Shown here piece by piece: positions 1-63,815 of a stretch of 64,000 bases of DNA; within the stretch, counting starts at the first letter, position 1, and every line of letters starts with the position of its first letter. The notes under the pieces were generated by a model, which was not told the DNA's origin, did no database searches, and was given only the letters and a program-made list of their open reading frames with translations. The position numbers were made by a program, and so were the translations under genes. The DNA is from an uncultured Bacteroidaceae bacterium. Its GTDB lineage: Bacteria; Bacteroidota; Bacteroidia; Bacteroidales; GCA-2748055. The stretch spans positions 49,858-113,857 of the forward strand of contig CAYZMH010000003.1 in the NCBI GenBank assembly GCA_964479445.1. Direction: 5' to 3'.

Positions 1-480
1 ATCTCCGGAGAAGAGGAGCGGTTTTCCCAGGTAGCAGGAGAGTGCATCCACACCGGAGCTTTTCCCGTGGAAATACGATTCAATCGTGGACAGGTCTTTG
101 CGCATCTGATGCAGTGTAAGTTCCTCTTTCCCCGAAAAAAGCTGGTCGTAGATAAAAGCAGACACCGACCCGGAGCTTCCGATTCCATAGCCCAGCGGTA
201 TATCGGATTCCAGGTAATAGCCGCTTCTGATCATCTTTTCGAACTCCCCGATCTGCGCCTTACCGTGAAAGCTGTTCACGGGAAGCGATTTCATGTACTG
301 GTAAAGGTTTCGCAGGTATTCCAGCGATTTAAAAGCCCGTTGTTCATCGGGGGCCTGGTTTATGGTACCCAGCCGGGTAAAGAAGCTTGTAAGCGGAACG
401 GTGAGTGCATCTCCTTTCAGGATTGCACTGTATTCACCGACCAGCATGACCTTGGCGTAGTATTTGGTTGTTGTGTTCAT
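1..480 (-). CDS. GHMP-family kinase, mevalonate-kinase-like (N-terminal part only; the C-terminus lies beyond the window start)
   Basis: It is absent from the ORF track because it runs off the window. The reverse-strand ATG at 478-480 overlaps the mvaD stop (ATGA). My translation is MNTTTKYYAKVMLVGEYSAILKGDALTVPL...DIPLGYGIGSSGSVSAFIYD, which contains the GHMP ATP-binding loop (PLGxGxGSSGS). Confidence 0.7.
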   Translation of the reverse strand, partial: MNTTTKYYAKVMLVGEYSAILKGDALTVPLTSFFTRLGTINQAPDEQRAFKSLEYLRNLYQYMKSLPVNSFHGKAQIGEFEKMIRSGYYLESDIPLGYGIGSSGSVSAFIYDQLFSGKEELTLHQMRKDLSTIESYFHGKSSGVDALSCYLGKPLLFSGD

Positions 481-1583
481 TCCACCGAGATCCTTTCCGG
501 GCCATTTCCCATGACATCTCCGATGACGGCCTGGTTTTCACACAATGGTTTCAGTTGTTCATTTACAAAGGGGGTTACTCGGTTTGCCTCCGATTCGGGG
601 AACAGGAGATGGACATTGGCCCCGGCATCCAGTGTAAATCCCAGGCTTGTTCCGGTATCCCGCCGGAACTCCCGGATGCGGTGCAGGGCTTCCACGGTAA
701 GGGGAGCCATCAGGATATACCCGGGTGAACTGGTCATCATCATGGCGTGCAGGGTAAGTGCTTCGTTCTCCATGATATCGATGAAACCGCCCCAGTCGCC
801 GTTTCGCAGCACGGGTTTAAGGAGCCGGAGATTATCCTCTGCCTGTCGAAACCTTGCGGGGGCGAACGGATTGGTTTCCATGAGTGCATGACCATGGGAG
901 CTGGAGACAGCCTTTTTCCCCGACTCGATGATCAGGATCGAATCGTGCAGGAGCCGGAAATTGGGATGGATCTGCCCGATGGGAATGGCGTACTCATCGC
1001 TGGAGTCTGACCACCCGGAGGTTTTGCCCCACAGGGCCATCGCCCCGTACAGGGAGCGGGATGCGCTGCCTGAACCCAGGCGGGCCAGCAGGCTGGCCTT
1101 CCGGTAGAAATCTTCATGCGGCCTGTTAAACAGTTCCTGCTCGATATCACACAGGGCCAGTGCCAGGGCACTGAGGGCCGAGGCGCTGGAAGCGATCCCG
1201 GAGGAGTGGGGGAAGGTGTTGGCCGATCGTACCGTAAGGCGGGCATGCCCGAGGAAAGGGAGCAGCGGGGTTACCTGTTCCAGGTATTTTTCCAGGCGCT
1301 CACTGAATTGCGGAGCTTCGTTGTTTTCAAATTGAAAATCGAGTCGGGGACCCTGTGCGGTATCGTCATAGATACACTCCACCTCCATGCGTGTGCGTGC
1401 ATGGCTGAGGGTGACGCTGAGGGAAGCGTTGGTGGGCAGCTGGACAGTCCGTTTGCCCCAGTATTTTACAATGGCAATATTGGAAGGACTCTCCCAGGAC
1501 ACCCTGGTATGGTTGGTTCCGGGTACCCCCGAATACGATACGGAGGCTTCATCGCGGACTCTCTTTTCATACTTCATTTCCAT
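477..1583 (-). CDS. mvaD: diphosphomevalonate decarboxylase
   Basis: 368 aa. It has the NIAIVKYWGKR motif typical of mevalonate diphosphate decarboxylases, the GHMP loop SSGIASSASA, and mevalonate-pathway neighbours. Confidence 0.88.
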   Translation of the reverse strand: MEMKYEKRVRDEASVSYSGVPGTNHTRVSWESPSNIAIVKYWGKRTVQLPTNASLSVTLSHARTRMEVECIYDDTAQGPRLDFQFENNEAPQFSERLEKYLEQVTPLLPFLGHARLTVRSANTFPHSSGIASSASALSALALALCDIEQELFNRPHEDFYRKASLLARLGSGSASRSLYGAMALWGKTSGWSDSSDEYAIPIGQIHPNFRLLHDSILIIESGKKAVSSSHGHALMETNPFAPARFRQAEDNLRLLKPVLRNGDWGGFIDIMENEALTLHAMMMTSSPGYILMAPLTVEALHRIREFRRDTGTSLGFTLDAGANVHLLFPESEANRVTPFVNEQLKPLCENQAVIGDVMGNGPERISVE

Positions 1584-2499
1584 AGTATACTATCTCTTTG
1601 TAGGGAAACACGATTGATATTCCCTTGTTTTCCAGGTAATAGCGTAGTTCGGATTCCGGAAGGGTGGTGGCCACCAGGGCAAAATCGCCGCCCCAGGCTC
1701 CCAGGGATTTTACATAACCGTCGAGATCGCCGAACCGCTCCTCCCTGAGAGCGGGTTTCTGGAGTATGTCTGAGAGGCTCTCTTCGTGTTCGCGCATGAT
1801 CTCACCGAATTCGCGGAGGGTGGGTGCTTTGATCAGCCGGTAGGTCAGACCGGAAAAGTGGTCGATATCCCTGGCCGTGGGGATATAATGGTCGAGGAAC
1901 GAGGCCAGGCTCTGGTCTGATCGCTGTTTTTCACCCAGGTACACGAAGTAGAGCTGGCTGGCGAACGAGGGGTAGAAATCGATGGTCTCCACCACCGGCA
2001 TATCGTCAATGAGTTCATAGAGTAGGGGTCCGTTTGCATTGGCGCATGCCACATCGTACCCTGAACCTCTGGAGATCCGGAAGTGAAATTGCAGGGGATC
2101 GGCCCCGGCCCACTGGGCGAGGAGGGAGGTGAGGGTGGAGCTGCTTCCGAAGCCCCAGTTCGGATCAAAATCAAGGCGGGTGGTAATGTCTCTCTTTTCC
2201 AGTTGTTCGGCGAATCCGGGTTTCAGTTCGAGCATTTCTCCGAGCAGGAATACCAGGTGATCGGCGGTTTGCCGGTCGGTTGCCGATTCCACGGTGAGGG
2301 TGTCGAGGCGGATGCGGGTTTCGAACCAGGTTTGCTTTTTATACCGCGCGGTCCATTGCAGCATTCCGCGGGTCTCCTTGTGACCGGGAATCAACCACTG
2401 GCCGTGGGTTAATGGCACTGCCAGTGCCCTGGCGCCGAACAGGATCATGTATTCGGCGGTAAGGAGCAATTTTCCCCGGGCAAAGTATCGGTTCGCCAT
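1567..2499 (-). CDS. GHMP kinase of the GYDIA-type family (candidate mevalonate or phosphomevalonate kinase)
   Basis: 310 aa. It has the GFGSSST GHMP loop and an SGYDVACA motif that matches the 'GYDIA family GHMP kinase' signature. It overlaps mvaD by 17 nt. Confidence 0.7.
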   Translation of the reverse strand: MANRYFARGKLLLTAEYMILFGARALAVPLTHGQWLIPGHKETRGMLQWTARYKKQTWFETRIRLDTLTVESATDRQTADHLVFLLGEMLELKPGFAEQLEKRDITTRLDFDPNWGFGSSSTLTSLLAQWAGADPLQFHFRISRGSGYDVACANANGPLLYELIDDMPVVETIDFYPSFASQLYFVYLGEKQRSDQSLASFLDHYIPTARDIDHFSGLTYRLIKAPTLREFGEIMREHEESLSDILQKPALREERFGDLDGYVKSLGAWGGDFALVATTLPESELRYYLENKGISIVFPYKEIVYYGNEV

Positions 2500-2503
2500 G
2501 ATG

Positions 2504-3823
2504 TTATTTCTTTAAGGTTTCCAGGAATTCCTTGACCGCATGATGGGAGACAGTTTTGTCTTTAAAGTGAAGAAGGGCCTGCTCTCGTTCTTTTTTGCCG
2601 GCACCAAGCTGGCGGAGGATGTTGGCCAGGTGCATCTTCATGTGACCCTGCTGGATTCCGCTGGTGACCAGCGAGCGTATGGCACTGAAGTTGTTTGCCA
2701 GTCCGGCTGCCGCGATGATCTTCATGAGTTTGTGGGCATCGGGGTTGTTCATGATCCCCATACTCTGCCGGGCCAAGGGATGGTTACTGGTTAGTCCGCC
2801 CACGGTACCCACTGCCAGGGGCACCTCCAGGGTAAACCGGAAGAGGCCGTCCCGGAGGGTTGCTTCGGACAGTCCGCGGTACATTCCATCCCTTGCCGCA
2901 TAGGCGTGTCCGCATGCCTCCACCGCACGGAAGTCGTTCCCGGTTGCAATGACCACGGCGTCCATGCCGTTGAATATACCTTTGTTGTGGGTGACGGCGC
3001 GGTAGGTGTCGTTTCGGGCGATCTCCACCGCCCGCACAAATTTTTCGGCAAAGGTTGCAGCCGGCATCTCTTTTGCCAGGGACTGCAGGTTGTTTACGGC
3101 TGTTTCCACGTAGACCTCCACCCGGCTTTCGGGGGTATAGTTGGAGAGAATAGCCATGATGATGGTCAGTTCCCCCTCCCCGGTTTTGCCGGTTGCGTTA
3201 TCGACCACTGCTTTCCAGGTTTGGGCCAGTTCCTCCAGGACGGAGTTGATGAAGTTGGCACCCATGGCATCAGCGGTGTGGAAGGATACATGGAGCTGGT
3301 AGCAGGTATCCAGCATTCCGGTCCGGTCCACCAGTTCCATTTCGCTGATCCCGCCTCCCCGCTGGCGCATGCGTTCGGTGAGGGGATCCAGTTTTTCCAG
3401 GAGGTGTTTTTTCTCTTTATCAAACAGGGCTTGCAGTTTTTTGGCTGAGCCGGTCCAGCTGAAGTGCACCTGGCCGATCTTCAGGGTATCGATCACCCGG
3501 GCGTGAAACCCGCCGTGGGCTGACCAGAACCGGGCGGCATGGGAAGCTGCTGCTACCACGGAGCTCTCTTCGATGGCCAGCGGAACGGTAATCATCTCAT
3601 CGTTGATCAGGAAATTGGGGGCGATGCCATAGGGGATGAAGAAGTTGGAGACGGTGTTCTCACTGAACTCCTCGTATATCTCCTGCATGGAAGGATCGGG
3701 GTGAAGATGGGAACGGATCTCCCTGCGGAGTTTTCCCGGTTGGGCTGACTGGTTGATAAGCCATTCCACCTTCTCTTCGCGGGACATCTTTGAGAATCCG
3801 GATACCGGTTGCTGTGGTTTCAT
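2504..3823 (-). CDS. mvaA: hydroxymethylglutaryl-CoA reductase
   Basis: 439 aa. HMGR hallmarks are present: EESSVVAAASH, DAMGANFINS, ATGNDFRAVEA, GTVGG. Confidence 0.9.
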   Translation of the reverse strand: MKPQQPVSGFSKMSREEKVEWLINQSAQPGKLRREIRSHLHPDPSMQEIYEEFSENTVSNFFIPYGIAPNFLINDEMITVPLAIEESSVVAAASHAARFWSAHGGFHARVIDTLKIGQVHFSWTGSAKKLQALFDKEKKHLLEKLDPLTERMRQRGGGISEMELVDRTGMLDTCYQLHVSFHTADAMGANFINSVLEELAQTWKAVVDNATGKTGEGELTIIMAILSNYTPESRVEVYVETAVNNLQSLAKEMPAATFAEKFVRAVEIARNDTYRAVTHNKGIFNGMDAVVIATGNDFRAVEACGHAYAARDGMYRGLSEATLRDGLFRFTLEVPLAVGTVGGLTSNHPLARQSMGIMNNPDAHKLMKIIAAAGLANNFSAIRSLVTSGIQQGHMKMHLANILRQLGAGKKEREQALLHFKDKTVSHHAVKEFLETLKK

Positions 3824-3837
3824 GACGGGTTTACAGG

Positions 3838-4839
3838 TTATTCATTGATTGTCAGATAGGAATAGGCCATTTCCAGTCCTTTCACCTGGCTCTCCACGAA
3901 GGCCTGCAACTGTTCATAATCTTCCTGTGCATATTTGAGGAAGGTGGAGGCCATCCCGTACACGGCGGGCATGGAGGATTTTTTCACCAGGTAGTAGCCA
4001 TCGAGGAAATCCTTGATGCCGCCTGAAATGATCAGCTCTTTGCAGGCGGGCTTTTCCCCTGCGGTGATCCGGTTGATCTCTTCGAGCATGGAGTAGGCAT
4101 CCTCCCCGATGAGAGAGAGAGGTTCGAACAGGGCTTTTTCGGCGTTCTCGTCCCGCAGGAGTTCCACGCGGGCAAAGTTGGTTCCGCCGAATGCAGCAAA
4201 TTCGATAGCCTGCAGGGGCAGCTGCAGCAGTTTGCGGAGGCTTTCCGGACCGATTCCCTGGCCCACTTCTTTGACGATCATGGGATAGGGAAACTTTTCC
4301 ATAAATCGTGTAATCGCCTCAAAGGGAGATATTTTCAGGATGTCACCTTCGGGTTGGAACCACTCCTGCATGGGATTCACGTGAATGATGAGTCCGTCGG
4401 CTTCCAGTTTTTCCACCAGCTTTGTTGCTTTCCCGATGCTGTTCTCTTCCAGGAGCTCTTCGATCTGTGCAATCCCGAGGTTGGCCCACAGCGGCAGGTC
4501 GGGTCCGATTATGGGCCGCATGTTGAAATCCTCGAAGAAGGTATCATCTTCCATGATTATCCGGCAGGAGCCCAATCCCATTCCCATACCAAACTCGTTG
4601 CAGGCGCGGGCCAGGTTGCGGTTAATGGTCCCTGCCATTTTCGTTCCCCCGGTCATACTGCTGACCCACATGGGTACTTTATGTTCTTTTCCAAGGAATG
4701 TAAAGGGTTGAAGTCCGCCTGAGGGGTGTGCTGTAAGCATGGGTTCATACCGGAACCGCAAATCCCTGTCGGGTCGTCCGGTCTGGGATTTAAATGCCAG
4801 GTCGATGTGATCTTTCTTACGGGTTTCCAGTTGTTCCAT
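3838..4839 (-). CDS. fni: type 2 isopentenyl-diphosphate delta-isomerase (FMN-dependent)
   Basis: The ORF track extends to 5088, but that extension overlaps the acyl-CoA dehydrogenase gene. The internal start MEQLETRKKDHIDLAF at 4839 gives a typical IDI-2 N-terminus. SSMTGG and GGIKD motifs are present. Confidence 0.88.
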   Translation of the reverse strand: MEQLETRKKDHIDLAFKSQTGRPDRDLRFRYEPMLTAHPSGGLQPFTFLGKEHKVPMWVSSMTGGTKMAGTINRNLARACNEFGMGMGLGSCRIIMEDDTFFEDFNMRPIIGPDLPLWANLGIAQIEELLEENSIGKATKLVEKLEADGLIIHVNPMQEWFQPEGDILKISPFEAITRFMEKFPYPMIVKEVGQGIGPESLRKLLQLPLQAIEFAAFGGTNFARVELLRDENAEKALFEPLSLIGEDAYSMLEEINRITAGEKPACKELIISGGIKDFLDGYYLVKKSSMPAVYGMASTFLKYAQEDYEQLQAFVESQVKGLEMAYSYLTINE

Positions 4840-4850
4840 TGGGTTGGTAT

Positions 4851-6002
4851 TTAGCGTATTCCGTGATGACGTGCAATGACGAGCCGCAGGATCTCGGAAG
4901 TACCTTCGCCTATCTCCAGGATTCGCTGATCGCGGTAGAACCGTTCGATGGCATTCTCCTTCATGAGTCCGTGTGCCCCATGGATCTGAAGCGAATCGTT
5001 GGCTACTTCGCGCGCGATCTCCGAGGTGTACAACTTGGCCATGGCTGCCTCTTTCCCGAAAGGTTGCTTGTGGTCTTTGAGCCAGCAAGCCTTGTAGAGC
5101 AGGTTACGGGCCAGTTCGATTTTGGTGGCCATATCGGCCAGTTTGAACTGGTTGGCCTGGAAACTCCGGATGGGTTTCCTGAACTGAATGCGTTTTCCTG
5201 CATACTCCATGGCCTGTTCAAAGGCCCCCTGGGCCAGTCCCAGTCCCATGGCGGCAATGGATAACCGTCCGCCGTCGAGGGTGGAGAGCATGATCTTGGA
5301 TCCTTTTCCGCGCTCTCCCAGGAGGTTCTCTTCGGGGACAGTCACATTGTTTAAAAAGATCTTGCCCGTGTCAGCAGCCCGCCACATCATCTTCGAATCG
5401 ATGATCTCTGTGCTGTAGCCATCATTTTCCCGGTCGACCAGGATCACGGAGAGTTCTTTCCTGCCGTCCCCCCGGTCATCCGTCACTGCCTGAACGGTGA
5501 TTCCCCCGGACATGGCTGATGCGGAGTTGGTAATGTAGATCTTTCCGCCGTTGATATGCCAGTTCCCGTCTTTGAGTTCCGCCACGGTTTCGGTATTGTT
5601 GGAATCGGAACCTGCGTTGGGTTCGGTAAGCCCAAAGGCCCATAGTTTGCGTTCCCCGATGAGTTTGGGCAGGTATGTATCGATCTGCTTTTTTGTCCCG
5701 TAGTTCAGGATTGGGGCAATACCCAACGAGTTATGGGCTGCCACCGTGGCTGCCTGGGAGCCATCCACCCGGGCCAGTTCCTCCACCGTCACGATGTAGG
5801 ATAGGGTATCCATGCCCCGGCCTCCATACTCCTCCGGGGTATTGATGCCCAGAAGACCCAGGTCAAACATCCGGTGGGTGAGTTTTTCCGAGAAGGTGGA
5901 TGTTTCATCCAGCTCACGGGCAACCGGCGCGATCTCTTTTTCAGCAAAGGTACGCACCTCTTCCCGTAATTCTTCGTGCGATTTGTTCAATAAAGGGTCC
6001 AT
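4851..6002 (-). CDS. acyl-CoA dehydrogenase, probably isovaleryl-CoA dehydrogenase by context
   Basis: 383 aa and ACAD-like throughout (GLTEPNAGSD, YRDQRILEIGEGTSEI). Substrate specificity is inferred only from the flanking methylcrotonyl-CoA carboxylase genes. Confidence 0.8.
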   Translation of the reverse strand: MDPLLNKSHEELREEVRTFAEKEIAPVARELDETSTFSEKLTHRMFDLGLLGINTPEEYGGRGMDTLSYIVTVEELARVDGSQAATVAAHNSLGIAPILNYGTKKQIDTYLPKLIGERKLWAFGLTEPNAGSDSNNTETVAELKDGNWHINGGKIYITNSASAMSGGITVQAVTDDRGDGRKELSVILVDRENDGYSTEIIDSKMMWRAADTGKIFLNNVTVPEENLLGERGKGSKIMLSTLDGGRLSIAAMGLGLAQGAFEQAMEYAGKRIQFRKPIRSFQANQFKLADMATKIELARNLLYKACWLKDHKQPFGKEAAMAKLYTSEIAREVANDSLQIHGAHGLMKENAIERFYRDQRILEIGEGTSEILRLVIARHHGIR

Positions 6003-6012
6003 TCTTTTTCGT

Positions 6013-8013
6013 TTAAGCTAATGTGATTACTAGTTTTTTCTTCTGTACCTGGTCGCCCACTTTTACGTGGATCTTACTGATCCTGGCATCATGGCCGACC
6101 ATAATTTTATTTTCCATTTTCATGGATTCGATCACCAGGAGGGTATCACCTTTTGCGACCGATTCGTTCTCCCGTACATTGATCTGTACCACCTTCCCGT
6201 TGAGGGGGGCGGTTATCTCGTTTTTACCCCCGGAGATACTTTCGCTGCTGCCGTCGCTCACAAACCGTTCATCCAGCACATCCAGTCTCCTGGCCTTAAA
6301 AAGGTGTCCATCCAGGTCGATGGTCAGTTCCGACCGGTCAACGTACCCCCAGAAGTGGGTGAGCTGATCGTTGATGCGAACCCAGTAGTGGTTTCCCCTT
6401 TTCTGTTCGAGTTCCACCTGGTAGGGTTCATCTTTTATGAAAAGCCTGATCGCTTTTTTTCGTTCGATCAGTTCATAGGGAATACGCAGTTCTTCGTGTT
6501 CGCACTGAAGCAGCAGTTCGGGCTGGATACGCCAGTGTCCGATGGCATACCAGGTATTGCCGTTATTGATGTGGCGAAAATAGTTGTGTTCCAGGGCCAT
6601 CAGGGAGGCTGATGATACCACGAATTCGTGTGGAATAGTTTTCCGCCGATCACTATTTTTCTGATTGATGGTCTGCAGGTGTTCGTCGATATACCTTGTA
6701 TGCATAATGTTGGCGGAGAAATCCTCTCCCTGCAAGAGTTCCAGCAGAAAGTCGCGGTTCGTTGTAATTCCGGTCAGGTGATAATCTTTAAGCGTTCGCA
6801 CCAGGTGGGCGCGTGCCTCTTCACGGTTTTTGCCTTCGGTGATCACTTTAGCGATCATCGGATCGTAGTATGGTTCAATGAGGTTATCTTCACGGTATCC
6901 ACCGTCAATCCTTGTCCAGGGATAATCGGGTTCACTGAGGGCGTCGATCCGTCCGGTGGAGGGCATAAACTCTTTTGCCGGATCTTCGGCATACACCCGG
7001 GCTTCGATGGCATGGCCCCGGATGTGCAGATCTTCCTGTCTGAATGAGAGGGCATTGCCCTGGGCAATACTGATCTGTTCCCTGACCAGGTCGATCCCCG
7101 TGATCATCTCTGTTACCGGGTGTTCCACCTGGATGCGTGTATTCATCTCCAGGAAATAGAAGTTCTGATCGGGATCAACCAAAAACTCCACGGTTCCCGC
7201 GTTCACGTACCCGATACCCATAACCAGTTTCAGGGCTGCGGAGGTGATTTTGTTACGTGTTTCGGCGGATATGAATCCGGAAGGGGCCTCCTCGATGATC
7301 TTCTGGTATCTTCGCTGGAGGGAGCACTCCCGTTCAAAGAGGTGTAAGGCATTTCCGTGGTGGTCGGCAATGATTTGGACCTCGATATGCCTGGGAGCTT
7401 CGATATACCGTTCGATAAAAAGTTCATCCGATCCGAAGTAAGCGGCGGCTTCCCTGGCGGATGTGTGCAATGCTTCTTTGAGCTCTTTGCTGCTGCGTAC
7501 GATGCGCATCCCTTTACCACCCCCGCCTGCTGCCGGTTTGACCAGTTGCGGGTAGGTATAGGTATCCGCCTGTCTGATCAGCTCATCCAGGGGTTTTATA
7601 TCCCCTTCCAGTACCGGAACGCCCAGCTCCACTGCTTTTTCGCGGGCATTGATCTTATTGCCCATAAGATCGATCACCCGGTGGTCGGGCCCGATAAAAA
7701 CAATATTGCTGGCAGCACAGGCCCTGGCAAAGTCAGCATTTTCTGAAAGGAATCCGTAGCCCGGGTGAATGGCTTCGGCCCCGGATTCCCGGGCAATGCG
7801 GATGATCTTTTCGGTGTTGAGGTAGGTATCCGACAGGGTTCCGCTCCCGAGGGAGTAGGCTTCATCGGCCATGGTAACAAACGGCAGGTTCTTATCCACA
7901 TCGGAGTGGATCACCACGGCCACTTTTCCGGTTTCACGGATCGCCTGGATGATCCGGATCGCTATTTCGCCACGGTTGGCGACCAGTATTTTATGGAAGC
8001 TACGTGTTTTCAT
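6013..8013 (-). CDS. biotin carboxylase plus biotin carboxyl carrier subunit of an acyl-CoA carboxylase (3-methylcrotonyl-CoA carboxylase alpha-like)
   Basis: It has the KILVANRGEIAIR biotin-carboxylase N-terminus, an ATP-grasp core, and a C-terminal biotinylation motif (IESMKMEN). I chose the start at 8013 (MKTRSFHKILVANRGE). The ORF-track start at 8040 would overlap the hydratase gene by 41 nt. Confidence 0.85.
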   Translation of the reverse strand: MKTRSFHKILVANRGEIAIRIIQAIRETGKVAVVIHSDVDKNLPFVTMADEAYSLGSGTLSDTYLNTEKIIRIARESGAEAIHPGYGFLSENADFARACAASNIVFIGPDHRVIDLMGNKINAREKAVELGVPVLEGDIKPLDELIRQADTYTYPQLVKPAAGGGGKGMRIVRSSKELKEALHTSAREAAAYFGSDELFIERYIEAPRHIEVQIIADHHGNALHLFERECSLQRRYQKIIEEAPSGFISAETRNKITSAALKLVMGIGYVNAGTVEFLVDPDQNFYFLEMNTRIQVEHPVTEMITGIDLVREQISIAQGNALSFRQEDLHIRGHAIEARVYAEDPAKEFMPSTGRIDALSEPDYPWTRIDGGYREDNLIEPYYDPMIAKVITEGKNREEARAHLVRTLKDYHLTGITTNRDFLLELLQGEDFSANIMHTRYIDEHLQTINQKNSDRRKTIPHEFVVSSASLMALEHNYFRHINNGNTWYAIGHWRIQPELLLQCEHEELRIPYELIERKKAIRLFIKDEPYQVELEQKRGNHYWVRINDQLTHFWGYVDRSELTIDLDGHLFKARRLDVLDERFVSDGSSESISGGKNEITAPLNGKVVQINVRENESVAKGDTLLVIESMKMENKIMVGHDARISKIHVKVGDQVQKKKLVITLA

Positions 8014-8797
8014 CTCTCCAGGTTGGGGTTCGTTTTTCAAAAAATGCGTTCATGCCCTCCTGCCCCTCCGTACCGGTTCGGAATTGAGCGATGAGGGCGG
8101 CGGTATGATCCAGGATCTTTTCCGGGTCATTTTCATTCTCCAGGTACCATACCAGTTCCTTGATCCCGGTAAGCGAGCCGGGTGCGTTTTTCAGCAGCTT
8201 GTCGATGAGTGCATCGGTTTGGGTTTCCAGTTCATCCCCGGGCATGATCTCCTGAACCAGTCCTGACCGGAAGCCTTCATCTGCAGGGATCGTACGCCCG
8301 GTAAGCATCCATTCACGAGCCCTGGTCACACCCGCTTTGCGGATTATAAACGGAGCGATGGTAGCGGGTATAAGGCCCAGTTTCACCTCTGTAAATGCAA
8401 AGGAAGAATCTTCAGCGGCCAGGGCGATATCGCTTGCAGCTACTATTCCGTTGGCGCCCCCGATCACTTTTCCGCGGATGGTGGTAATTGTTACTTTGCT
8501 GCTGTGGTAGATGCGATGAAAAAGTTCACCGAGTTCACGACTCTCCTGTTCCAGCTGGGCGGCTGATTGTGTCAGACCGTCTTTCATCCACTGCAGGTCG
8601 GCGCCGGCAGAAAAGTTATGTCCCTTATGGCGGATAAGGATGATGGTGATTCCGGGGTCGTTATCCAGTTGGTCGAACTGCCTGTTGAACTCCCTGATCA
8701 TGCCGATATGGAGGGCATTGTGGACTTCGGGCCGGTTCAGCGTAAGCGTACCCATTTTACCCCTGCGGGATGATATGATCGTTTGCGAGGTATTCAT
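8000..8797 (-). CDS. enoyl-CoA hydratase/isomerase family protein (methylglutaconyl-CoA hydratase-like by context)
   Basis: 265 aa with a crotonase fold (LTLNRPEVHNAL, FSAGADL, GGANGI). It lies between the two carboxylase subunit genes. Confidence 0.8.
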   Translation of the reverse strand: MNTSQTIISSRRGKMGTLTLNRPEVHNALHIGMIREFNRQFDQLDNDPGITIILIRHKGHNFSAGADLQWMKDGLTQSAAQLEQESRELGELFHRIYHSSKVTITTIRGKVIGGANGIVAASDIALAAEDSSFAFTEVKLGLIPATIAPFIIRKAGVTRAREWMLTGRTIPADEGFRSGLVQEIMPGDELETQTDALIDKLLKNAPGSLTGIKELVWYLENENDPEKILDHTAALIAQFRTGTEGQEGMNAFFEKRTPTWRDENT

Positions 8798-8799
8798 AG

Positions 8800-10407
8800 T
8801 TACATGCGATAGACACCGTACCGTGGTTCGTTATACTTTTTATTGAGGGACATGGAAATGGAGAGTCCAAGTATCCGGCGTGTATCGGCCGGATCGATGA
8901 TGCCGTCATCCCAGAGCCGGGATGTGCTGTAATAGGCGGATCCTTCATGTTCGTATTTTTCCAGGATTGGCCGGCGGATTGCTTCCCGTTCTTCTTTGTC
9001 GAGTTCCTTTCCCCCGGATTTAGCCTGTTCCTCCTTGATGGTAGCAAGTACTTCGGCTGCCTGTTCGCCGCCCATGACCGATATCTTGGCATTGGGCCAC
9101 ATGAAGAGCAGCCGCGGTTCGTAAGCCCTTCCCGACATGGCATAATTCCCTGCACCGAAGGAACCACCGGTGATGATCGTGAAACGGGGTACACGTGTAT
9201 TGGCTACGGCATGTACCATTTTGGCACCGTCTTTGGCGATTCCGCCATGCTCGGCATCTTTACCGACCATGAAGCCTGATATATTCTGCAGGAATACGAT
9301 GGGTAGTCCGCGATAATCGCATAGTTCCACGAAATGGGTTCCTTTGAGGGCCGATTCGGAAAAGAGGACCCCGTTATTGGCGATGATACCCACCGGGTAC
9401 CCCATGATTCGTGCAAATCCGGTAACCAGGGTAGTACCGTAGTTTTCCTTGAACTCTGAGAATTCACTTCCATCCACCAGCCGGGCGATGATCTCACGTA
9501 CATCATAGGATTCGCGGAGGGTGGGGGGAATGATCCCGTAGATCTCTTCGGGGTTATAGAGGGGCTCTTTCACCTCTGTTTTTTCAATGGGCTGACGTTC
9601 TTTTCCCTGTATCGTTTCAAAAATATTCCGGCAGATCTGCAGGGCATGCCGGTCGTTTTCGGCCAGGTGGTCGGCGACTCCCGAAATTCGGGTGTGCACT
9701 TCACCACCGCCGAGCTCTTCGGCGCTTACCTCTTCGCCGGTTGCGGCTTTGACCAGTGGGGGACCTCCCAGGAAGATGGTTCCCTGGTTTTTCACAATGA
9801 TGGTTTCATCGCTCATGGCAGGTACATACGCTCCTCCTGCAGTGCAGGAACCCATTACCACAGAGATCTGCGGTATACCGGCTGCCGAGAGTCGTGCCTG
9901 GTTGTAAAATATCCGGCCAAAGTCTTCTTTATCGGGGAAAACCTCTGCCTGGTTGGGCAGGAAAACTCCGCCTGAATCGACCAGGTAGACACACGGAAGG
10001 TGGTTCTGGTATGCAACCTCCTGGGCACGAAGGTGCTTTTTAATGGTTTCGTGTACATAGGTACCCCCTTTCACCGTGGCGTCGTTGGCAACCACCATGA
10101 CCTCTTTTCCGTGGATGACGCCGAGTCCGGTGACGATCCCTGCCGAAGGGAACTGGTCTTCGTATTGCCCGTTGGCCGCCAGGGTGGATAATTCGAGGAA
10201 TGGTGTGTTGGCATCCATCAGCAAGTTGATGCGGTCGCGGACCAGCAATTTGTTCCGTGACTCATGTTTTTTCCGGACTTTCTCAGGACCGCCCGGGTAG
10301 GTGAACCGTATTCTGTTTCGGAACTCTTCCAGGATAGTGCGGAAGTGCGCGTCGTTTTTCCTGAATGTGTCGGATTGCGTGTTTATTTGCGTTGATAAAG
10401 TCTTCAA
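8800..10407 (-). CDS. acyl-CoA carboxylase carboxyltransferase subunit (3-methylcrotonyl-CoA carboxylase beta-like)
   Basis: 535 aa. It resembles the carboxyl_trans family over its full length ([39 protein letters not shown]). Confidence 0.88.
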
Positions 10408-10687
10408 TGCTATCTGTTTTACACGTTTTTTATAATCTTTTAACAGTTGCCTTTCAGTTTTGTTTAAAATTTACCCGAAAAAGACTAAACAAAATTAAAC
10501 AAATTTGTAATGTCAGGTATTGGATATCGCTGTTTACAGAGGGTTTTTTGTTTGTTTGCCGGTCTCATGATGATTGATTTATTCCGGGTGATTACGGGGT
10601 AGAGAGGGGAGTATTGGATTTGTATCAAAAGATTATGTACGGGAATTTTCTGAATGTTGCTGGTGGCCGGTATATAACAGGGTTGAA

Positions 10688-62744: not shown

Positions 62745-63815
62745 ATGAAGGAACTACGATTAATGAAAGGCAATGAGGCGGTTGCCGAAGCAGCGATCAG
62801 AGCTGGTGTGGATGCTTATTTCGGGTATCCTATCACACCCCAGTCTGAGGTACTGGAATACCTTACCCAGGAACGGCCGGAGGAGCGAACAGGGATGATT
62901 GTACTGCAGGCAGAAAGTGAAATTGCTGCAATTAATATGGTATATGGGGCTGCCGGAACCGGAAAGAAGGTAATGACCTCCTCCTCGAGTCCCGGGATCA
63001 GTCTGAAAATGGAGGGAATAAGTTATATAGCAGGAGCAGAGTTACCATGTGTAGTATTGAACGTAGTGCGGGGAGGACCGGGTCTTGGCACCATCCAGCC
63101 TTCACAGGCCGATTATTTCCAGGCAACCAAAGGGGGCGGCCATGGGGATTACCGGTTGATCGTGCTGGCACCTGCCTCGGTTCAGGAGATGGCTGATTTT
63201 GTTGACCTGGCATTTGAACTGGCGTTTAAGTACCGAAATCCTGCCATGATTCTGTCCGACGGACTTATCGGGCAGATGATGGAAAAGGTGGAGATGCCAG
63301 ATCAGAAAGAGCGACTGACCGAATTCGACCAGGATTGGGTGATTACCGGCAAGAGCAACGGCCGTGAACGTAATATCATTACCTCCCTGAACCTGGATCC
63401 CGAGGAACAATACAGACACAACATTCATCTCCAGGAGAAGTATGCATCCATGTCGCAGGATGTACAATTCGAAACATTCCATTGTGAAGATGCTGATTTC
63501 CTGCTTGTGGCTTATGGCTCCAGTTCCCGTATTTGTCAGAAATCAGTGGATATTGCCAGGAGCCAGGGTAAGAAATTGGGACTTCTGCGACCTATAACGC
63601 TGTTCCCCTTCCCAAAAGAGGTGATTACAAAACTTGCCCGCCAGGTTAAAGGAATCCTTAGCGTGGAGATGAGTGCAGGACAGATGGTAGAAGATGTAAA
63701 ACTGGCTGTGAACGGGCGTATTCCCGTTCATCATTATGGTACTTTCGGCGGTAAGATCTTTTCTCCCGAGGATGTACTTGAAGCCATCAATGAAAAATTT
63801 GTAGGAGGACTATAA
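62745..63815 (+). CDS. korA: 2-oxoacid:ferredoxin oxidoreductase alpha subunit (KorA/VorB-like)
   Basis: 356 aa. It has the MKGNEAVAEAAIRAGVDAYFGYPITPQSE N-terminus typical of OFOR alpha subunits. Confidence 0.85.
   Translation: MKELRLMKGNEAVAEAAIRAGVDAYFGYPITPQSEVLEYLTQERPEERTGMIVLQAESEIAAINMVYGAAGTGKKVMTSSSSPGISLKMEGISYIAGAELPCVVLNVVRGGPGLGTIQPSQADYFQATKGGGHGDYRLIVLAPASVQEMADFVDLAFELAFKYRNPAMILSDGLIGQMMEKVEMPDQKERLTEFDQDWVITGKSNGRERNIITSLNLDPEEQYRHNIHLQEKYASMSQDVQFETFHCEDADFLLVAYGSSSRICQKSVDIARSQGKKLGLLRPITLFPFPKEVITKLARQVKGILSVEMSAGQMVEDVKLAVNGRIPVHHYGTFGGKIFSPEDVLEAINEKFVGGL

Follow-up and report, generated by a model that had tools for sequence, protein, structure and literature searches.

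A stretch of 64,000 nucleotides from an uncultured Bacteroidaceae bacterium (contig CAYZMH010000003.1 of assembly GCA_964479445.1, positions 49,858 to 113,857 of the forward strand; hereafter the window) opens with a nine-gene operon in which a leucine/isovalerate utilisation (liu) block runs directly into a mevalonate (mva) block. From the gene content and its conservation in relatives, we consider it likely, with some room for doubt, that this operon is a hard-wired form of the known leucine shunt, which would run forward from isovaleryl-CoA through 3-hydroxy-3-methylglutaryl-CoA (HMG-CoA) to mevalonate as a second route to isopentenyl diphosphate (IPP) beside the methylerythritol phosphate (MEP) pathway. 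A first-pass annotation of the window had suggested a dedicated route from leucine or isovalerate to isoprenoids, and four observations favour that suggestion: the carboxyltransferase (CT) of the operon is of the 3-methylcrotonyl-CoA carboxylase (MCC) type, no HMG-CoA synthase (HMGS), thiolase or HMG-CoA lyase was detected, the fusion of the two blocks recurs in about 20 families, and no lyase-like gene was found in the genomes that carry it.

Organisation of the operon

The nine open reading frames (ORFs) lie on the minus strand between positions 1 and 10407 of the window, the ninth being cut by the window edge. Flanking DNA (locus L004, 14421-15338) gives the mevalonate kinase-like product of this last gene a full length of 305 aa. 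Pfam and NCBIfam models returned the gene order CT, crotonase (ECH), biotin carboxylase with biotin carboxyl carrier protein (BC), acyl-CoA dehydrogenase (ACAD), type 2 IPP isomerase (IDI-2), HMG-CoA reductase (HMGR), GYDIA-family kinase (GYDIA), diphosphomevalonate decarboxylase (MVD) and mevalonate kinase-like kinase (MVK). Spacings at the successive junctions from CT to MVK are 2, -14, 10, 11, 14, 4, -17 and -4 nt, and the liu and mva blocks, which meet between ACAD and IDI-2, are 11 nt apart. Both coordinates and domain content agree with the first-pass description of nine consecutive minus-strand genes, in this order, that overlap or are separated by at most 14 nt.

The nine genes are presumably co-transcribed. 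A Bacteroidetes-type -7 box, TAATTTTG (10490-10497), is present upstream of CT and, judged from this short motif, likely marks the operon promoter. A minus-strand scan of the operon for the same motif returned only two other matches (5945-5952 and 9618-9625), both intracoding, and none at the 4839-4851 junction between ACAD and IDI-2. Sigma-70-type promoter-like and intrinsic-terminator-like sites did not exceed the number obtained from shuffled sequence, in scans that are ill-suited to Bacteroidota promoters. Among sequencing runs searched for the locus, 20 of DNA and none of RNA contained it.

Sources and sinks of HMG-CoA in the host genome

The host assembly comprises 3.73 Mb in 230 contigs and is 97.4% complete. 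No HMGS was detected in it: the top match of TIGR01835 scored 34.5 bits and fell on a FabH-like ORF, and three Bacteroidota HMGS proteins gave zero tblastn matches. Thiolase was likewise missing from the assembly, where Thiolase_N matched only the same FabH-like ORF. HMG-CoA lyase was also not detected there: the two HMGL-like genes are LeuA and a CimA-like gene, NF004283 gave about 50 bits against a cut-off of 246, and the search for lyase-like genes made across the order returned no match in the host genome. The first-pass annotation had remarked that the operon lacks lyase, synthase and thiolase, and this extends to the whole assembly; a canonical mvaS elsewhere in the genome, which it had named as a finding that would speak against a dedicated route, was looked for and not found. 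As no synthase, thiolase or lyase was detected in the genome, the operon would be both its only source and its only sink of HMG-CoA.

The annotation had also suggested a search for the 1-deoxy-D-xylulose 5-phosphate (DXP, or MEP) pathway, and six of its seven genes (Dxs, Dxr, IspD, IspE, IspG and IspH) were found above their cut-offs in the host genome. A search of the assembly with the IspF family model found no match, and neither did tblastn with the proteins of two relatives. A broken MEP pathway was considered and rejected, since IspF is present in 18 of the 19 other genomes with the fused operon, and an assembly gap is the more likely cause. With the MEP pathway present, the operon route is additional in this organism and not its sole source of IPP.

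Two further loci bear on the supply of the operon. At G000:C38 (L054 3745-7430, minus strand), EtfB and EtfA form an operon together with a gene for a long ACAD of 572 aa; this operon holds the only gene for the alpha subunit of the electron transfer flavoprotein found in the genome, and its EtfAB is the likely electron acceptor of the operon ACAD. VorB, a branched-chain 2-oxoacid:ferredoxin oxidoreductase subunit, is encoded outside the operon and far from it in the window; it is a candidate for making isovaleryl-CoA out of 2-oxoisocaproate, with a presumed connection to the operon. LeuA is present in the host genome.

Distribution of the fusion in the order

The survey covered 151 genomes from the same order, with roughly one for each GTDB family. 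Of these, 45 have an HMGR homologue and 67 an MCC-type carboxyltransferase, which occurs in 42 of the 45 HMGR carriers versus 25 of the 106 non-carriers. HMGS above the family cut-off was found in none of the 151. Only two weak HMGS-family matches (about 110 bits; G021:C1:56841-57881 and G009:C342:3443-4354) were seen in the order, both probably of archaeal type, and the one in G021 lies about 6 kb from the MCC carboxyltransferase of its genome.

The results revealed a fused arrangement, with HMGR and carboxyltransferase 5-7 kb apart on one strand, in 20 genomes. The order CT-ECH-BC-ACAD-IDI2-HMGR-GYDIA-MVD-MVK was identical in 17 of 18 fetched loci, which belong to other GTDB families and share 30-79% protein identity, and the eighteenth lacks IDI-2 only. 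Recurrence of the nine-gene order across families at such identities implies that the arrangement is not due to chance. The estimated gap between ACAD and IDI-2 has a median of 3 nt over 17 loci, as tight as any other junction of the operon, with 87-127 nt in four of them. Of the 42 genomes with both a liu and an mva block, 22 carry them on separate contigs, and one intermediate locus reads BC-ACAD-HMGR onwards. Maximum-likelihood trees of the carboxyltransferase and HMGR are too poorly resolved to favour a single origin of the fusion or an ancestral state; two changes or more are required by their starred branches, and most of the split forms group together.

A lyase-like gene (150-204 bits) was found in none of the 20 fused genomes, in 16 of the 22 split ones and in 18 of the 25 that have MCC only, and it often adjoins the liu block. 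In the split relatives the lyase-like genes are paired, with products of about 340 aa and about 290 aa, all below the NF004283 cut-off of 246 (e.g., G126:C44:113616-115556, G123:C8:69446-71469 and G136:C10:13604-17432).

Two split-type genomes of high completeness, G094 and G124, carry separate liu and mva blocks (L043/L044 and L035/L036, respectively). Neither yielded HMGS, LeuA or any of the five MEP genes tested in it. The lack of MEP genes and HMGS leaves the liu route as the only visible source of isoprenoid carbon in these two genomes, and as LeuA is missing too, their isoprenoids would need external leucine or isovalerate.

Identity of the leucine/isovalerate enzymes

Comparison with PDB entries showed that the carboxyltransferase is an MCC-type beta subunit by sequence: it scored 717 bits against Pseudomonas aeruginosa MCC beta (3u9r), 699 against human MCCB and 734 against Mycobacterium tuberculosis AccD1, versus about 250-285 for propionyl-CoA carboxylase beta subunits. 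A reading as geranyl-CoA carboxylase (Atu-type) was rejected on the score gap, 717 versus 468 bits for the geranyl-CoA carboxylase beta subunit 5ikl. For the alpha subunit, the top full-length PDB match was P. aeruginosa 3u9s (484 bits, residues 4-658), the biotinylation motif E-S-M-K-M is present, and a start at ATG 8013 agrees with the homologues better than one at TTG 8040.

The hydratase is a generic crotonase by its matches. Its top NCBIfam models, PRK07468 (212 bits) and gamma-carboxygeranoyl-CoA hydratase (203 bits), were both under their cut-offs, and its PDB matches are crotonases (AtuE 4zu2, 130 bits), with no AUH or LiuC structure among those at E<=1e-30. The conserved position of its gene between the two MCC subunits suggests 3-methylglutaconyl-CoA as the substrate.

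The ACAD scored highest against Clostridioides difficile Bcd (5ol2_C, 337 bits), followed by short-chain acyl-CoA dehydrogenase (SCAD, 287 bits) and human isovaleryl-CoA dehydrogenase (IVD; 1ivh, 210 bits). Its sequence reads EIGEGTSEI and LDGGRL, with Glu at the position used by medium-chain acyl-CoA dehydrogenase (MCAD) and SCAD and Gly where IVD has its Glu; canonical IVD has its catalytic Glu on helix G and Gly or Ala at the position of MCAD Glu376. The same ACAD type, at 56-63% identity, occurs in the separate liu blocks of relatives, so a Bcd-type ACAD appears to be the usual partner of MCC in the order. Genomic context points to isovaleryl-CoA as its presumed substrate.

Identity of the mevalonate enzymes

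IDI-2 scored 200 bits with TIGR02151, for which the cut-off is 281, and all five of its PDB matches are type 2 IPP isomerases (e.g., 1vcf with 113 bits and 2zru with 112). Its start at ATG 4839 fits the model from residue 7, and the longer ORF from a TTG would overlap the ACAD gene. HMGR reached 251 bits versus the TIGR00532 cut-off of 260. Its residues E85/E86, K281 (in THNKG), D297 and H394 are invariant in 18 aligned relatives, and we take them to be the class II catalytic set, with residue roles as in the P. mevalonii enzyme. MVD scored 153 bits with TIGR01240 (cut-off 171) versus 85 bits with the phosphomevalonate decarboxylase model.

The GYDIA kinase scored 288 bits with NF040656, above the cut-off of 225. 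Its AlphaFold model has a pLDDT of 93.5, and Foldseek matched this model to GHMP kinases, including mevalonate kinases (E 1e-12) and the phosphomevalonate kinase (PMK) of Streptococcus pneumoniae (3gon, TM 0.71); the GHMP fold is near both MVK and PMK. On the strength of the family match and the structural model, it is a candidate phosphomevalonate kinase. The MVK-like kinase scored 63 bits with TIGR00549, under the cut-off, and is the last gene of the block in every fetched locus. It was not until 2017 that the divergent MVK and PMK of Bacteroidetes were identified (Hayakawa et al., as cited in PMC6107057).

Features of the operon and its surroundings

The coordinates are collected in Table 1. 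A gene for cpYpsA (a circularly permuted SLOG protein of 163 aa) lies 29 nt downstream of MVK, outside the window (L004 13900-14391, minus strand), and is followed by a convergent gene. This SLOG gene and an upstream Vut_1 transporter gene were considered as parts of the system and rejected, since neither is conserved in the loci of relatives.

Table 1. Location of the operon genes, the region upstream of them and VorB in the window
Feature	Position	Strand	Supporting match
MCC beta (carboxyltransferase), first gene of the operon, TTG start	8800..10407	-	Pfam Carboxyl_trans, 516 bits
Crotonase-family hydratase, presumed 3-methylglutaconyl-CoA hydratase	8000..8797	-	Pfam ECH_1, 161 bits
MCC alpha (biotin carboxylase + biotin carboxyl carrier protein)	6013..8013	-	Pfam Biotin_carb_N, CPSase_L_D2, Biotin_carb_C, Biotin_lipoyl
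Bcd/SCAD-type acyl-CoA dehydrogenase, presumed isovaleryl-CoA dehydrogenase	4851..6002	-	Four ACAD Pfam domains
IDI-2, type 2 IPP isomerase, first gene of the mevalonate half	3838..4839	-	TIGR02151, 200 bits; PDB matches
Class II HMG-CoA reductase	2504..3823	-	Pfam HMG-CoA_red, 286 bits
GYDIA-family GHMP kinase, candidate phosphomevalonate kinase	1567..2499	-	NF040656, 288 bits
Diphosphomevalonate decarboxylase	477..1583	-	Pfam MVD-like_N + MDD_C
Mevalonate kinase-like GHMP kinase, 5′ part in the window	1..480	-	GHMP_kinases_N
Upstream intergenic region, 280 nt, with Bacteroidetes-type -7 box TAATTTTG at 10490-10497	10408..10687	-	Motif match
VorB, branched-chain 2-oxoacid:ferredoxin oxidoreductase alpha subunit	62745..63815	+	NF005507, 551 bits (cut-off 399)

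HMGR loci beyond the order

The 80 best HMGR loci, of Bacteroidota type, were taken for a wider comparison. The core (IDI2)-HMGR-GYDIA was found in nearly all of them, and MVD, MVK or IDI-2 is often adjacent; the full nine-gene fusion occurred in one only, from a Bacteroidales metagenome-assembled genome (MAG). Loci outside Bacteroidales came from Flavobacteriales, Saprospiraceae, Chitinophagales and MAGs labelled Bacteriovoracaceae, and none of them has adjoining MCC genes. A survey of how widespread the gene order is in Bacteroidota, which the first-pass annotation had proposed, has given the nine-gene order in 17 of the 18 fused loci fetched from the order and no MCC genes beside the HMGR core outside it.

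The cultured Ancylomarina sp. 16SWW S1-10-2 (L126 and L148) has an ACAD-IDI2-HMGR-GYDIA-MVD-MVK block and a separate CT-ECH-BC-x-ACAD block, and no HMGS was found in it. It therefore carries two Bcd-type ACAD copies, one heading the mva block and the other ending the CT block. This arrangement looks like a relic of the fusion or an intermediate to it.

In several MAGs labelled Bacteriovoracaceae or Halobacteriovorax (L059, L062, L064, L074 and L089), a Bacteroidota-like (IDI2)-HMGR-GYDIA-MVD-MVK block was observed with 51-53% HMGR identity. In one MAG of this set, an MCC-type carboxyltransferase (63% identity) is present and a synthase is missing.

Proposed pathway

In the pathway we propose (Table 1), the ACAD would oxidise isovaleryl-CoA to 3-methylcrotonyl-CoA, passing electrons to EtfAB, and the biotin-dependent MCC (alpha and beta subunits) would carboxylate this product to 3-methylglutaconyl-CoA. 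The crotonase would then hydrate 3-methylglutaconyl-CoA to HMG-CoA, which class II HMGR would reduce to mevalonate. The two GHMP kinases and the decarboxylase would convert mevalonate to IPP, and IDI-2 would isomerise IPP to dimethylallyl diphosphate (DMAPP). Isovaleryl-CoA could be formed by a VOR-type oxidoreductase from leucine or from 2-oxoisocaproate that the cell makes itself, or arise by activation of isovalerate. Both this source and the direction of flux are what we infer from the gene content. By the chemistry known for such enzymes, the carboxyl group that MCC adds ends up as C1 of mevalonate and is lost at the decarboxylase, so that the five carbons of isovaleryl-CoA would pass intact into IPP.

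Weighing of the evidence and of alternative explanations

Several observations weigh against the proposal of a forward, hard-wired leucine shunt. The MEP pathway is present, and the operon route is accordingly dispensable for IPP in this organism, in which, as a fermentative anaerobe, oxidation of isovaleryl-CoA also requires an electron sink. By both its PDB scores and the position of its catalytic Glu, the operon ACAD differs from canonical isovaleryl-CoA dehydrogenase. The hydratase is assigned to no specific family, and IDI-2, MVK, MVD and, marginally, HMGR score beneath their curated cut-offs. The surveyed genomes are relatives of one another, and Fisher tests on co-occurrence therefore overstate significance. 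Moreover, some genomes have a mevalonate block for which no source of HMG-CoA was found. G041 (L030) and G070 (L029) carry HMGR-GYDIA-MVD-MVK alone, with GroEL upstream in G041, and neither an MCC-type carboxyltransferase nor HMGS was found in them. Searches with TIGR01835 and the Mesonia HMGS protein also detected no HMGS in the HMGR carriers Dokdonia sp. R86516 (G152, L123), Flavobacterium longum (G153, L076) and Fluviicola chungangensis (G156, L130), nor in a 'Bacteriovoracaceae' UBA6153 MAG (G158, L074). These genomes allow that an unrecognised source of HMG-CoA exists in Bacteroidota.

The most serious alternative builds on these last genomes. An unrecognised enzyme, either a non-homologous HMGS or another source of HMG-CoA or mevalonate, might be the main entry, with the liu genes as an auxiliary or co-regulated feeder. 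The HMGR blocks in G041 and G070, in the three named Flavobacteriia and in the 'Bacteriovoracaceae' MAG are what such an enzyme would explain, yet we consider this unlikely to be the arrangement here. MCC accompanies HMGR in all but three of the 45 carriers of the order, the fusion with its median 3-nt junction has been kept in about 20 families, and loss of the lyase-like gene accompanies fusion. In addition, HMGS was found in Mesonia, Flavilitoribacter and a Sphingobacteriaceae MAG, and these positive controls show that the search does detect Bacteroidota HMGS.

A second alternative takes the operon as two independent modules that happen to be neighbours, namely leucine/isovalerate catabolism for energy and carbon and an ordinary mevalonate operon, with no dedicated flow between them. 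The two blocks can function apart, as the 22 genomes with them on different contigs indicate, and the wide ACAD-IDI-2 gaps of four fused loci could hold a promoter. However, the junction is only 11 nt in the window operon, the catabolic block would end at HMG-CoA without a lyase and the mevalonate block would lack a substrate, and the fused state never coincides with a lyase-like gene. Independence of the two modules is thus quite improbable, somewhat more so than an unrecognised entry enzyme.

The first-pass annotation had left room for the reverse direction, from HMG-CoA to isovaleryl-CoA as a primer for iso-branched lipids, which Bacteroidales do make, and a Bcd-type ACAD in anaerobes is usually reductive with EtfAB. 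This direction is disfavoured and hardly credible here: the myxobacterial alternative isovaleryl-CoA biosynthesis (AIB) pathway requires MvaS, the AibA/B decarboxylase and the AibC reductase (PMC5389471) and no synthase was found in the host genome, the ATP-dependent biotin carboxylase would have to operate backwards, the irreversible decarboxylation in the mevalonate pathway keeps IPP from feeding HMG-CoA, and VorB can supply isovaleryl-CoA directly.

Implications

Taking the proposal beyond this organism, the mevalonate pathway of Bacteroidales might never be fed by HMGS, and be fed instead by a carboxylated branched-chain C5 acyl-CoA; genomes such as G094 and G124 would then derive all their isoprenoids from environmental leucine or isovalerate, and LeuA carriers would have a third de novo route to IPP. 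We put this extension forward tentatively, as a possibility that falls a little short of being probable on the present genome comparison. If it is true, undecaprenyl phosphate and menaquinone would be built from external leucine or isovalerate in lineages of the G094/G124 type, which would represent an undescribed nutritional dependency and a cross-feeding link in anaerobic communities. The LeuA carriers would proceed from pyruvate through 2-oxoisocaproate and isovaleryl-CoA to HMG-CoA, bypassing thiolase and HMGS as well as DXP.

The textbook entries into isoprenoid synthesis are acetyl-CoA via HMGS, and pyruvate plus glyceraldehyde 3-phosphate via DXP. If the hard-wired leucine shunt operates as proposed, a large group of anaerobic Bacteroidales would use carboxylated leucine or isovalerate carbon as a third entry, organised as one operon, and the presence of HMGR in genomes without a synthase would be explained. 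Labelled leucine would be expected to yield intact M+5 isoprene units, with the decarboxylase releasing the CO2 that MCC had fixed, and cell-wall and quinone synthesis might depend on amino acids or isovalerate in lineages without MEP genes. The nine genes would also form a compact cassette for terpenoid engineering from branched-chain acids; according to a review (PMC8791446), the leucine shunt had not been built in Escherichia coli.

Comparison with known systems

The biochemical route itself is already known as the leucine shunt. What we did not find described is its conserved fusion into a single operon, the failure to detect a synthase in any of the order members sampled, the mutual exclusion of fusion and lyase-like gene, and the coexistence with the MEP pathway. 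A full-text search, which left most subscription journals outside its reach, returned no paper that describes the operon or a mevalonate pathway without synthase in Bacteroidales.

The leucine shunt also operates in myxobacteria. Labelling has demonstrated the sequence from leucine through isovaleryl-CoA, 3-methylcrotonyl-CoA, 3-methylglutaconyl-CoA and HMG-CoA to mevalonate in Halobacterium salinarum and Leishmania mexicana (review PMC8791446, section 3.1.2) and in Trypanosoma brucei (PMC5993337). The reaction sequence predicted here from the genes is the same, with the same meeting point at HMG-CoA. Elsewhere the shunt is a side entry with scattered catabolic genes, and HMGS and lyase are both present, whereas here the catabolic genes share a single operon with those of the mevalonate pathway, the genome yielded neither synthase nor lyase, and the bacterial host is anaerobic and has the MEP pathway.

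The liu cluster of Pseudomonas, liuRABCDE, serves the utilisation of leucine and isovalerate, and the MCC structures 3u9r, 3u9s and 3u9t belong to it. Both MCC subunits of the operon are clear homologues of its beta and alpha subunits (717 and 484 bits, respectively), and a crotonase and an ACAD lie alongside in both systems. Unlike the Pseudomonas cluster, the operon has no LiuE (HMG-CoA lyase) and no LiuR regulator was seen beside it; its ACAD is of the Bcd/SCAD type and not of the LiuA/IVD type, and its end product would be kept for biosynthesis instead of being cleaved.

With the mevalonate pathway of other Bacteroidota (Flavobacterium johnsoniae type), the operon shares the core in which the GYDIA kinase follows class II HMGR. 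The difference is that MCC genes do not adjoin this core outside Bacteroidales and some genomes there have HMGS, whereas none of the 151 Bacteroidales genomes has HMGS above the cut-off.

The myxobacterial AIB system consists of aibR-aibA-aibB-aibC-mvaS together with liuC (PMC5389471). It runs in the direction opposite to the one proposed here and uses MvaS, a CoA-transferase-like decarboxylase and a reductase in place of biotin carboxylase and ACAD. The host genome yielded no MvaS homologue and its operon encodes a biotin carboxylase; AibA/B were not searched for elsewhere in the genome. Common to both systems are the connection of isovaleryl-CoA and HMG-CoA through 3-methylglutaconyl-CoA, a shared hydratase, and a branch point that leads to isoprenoids.

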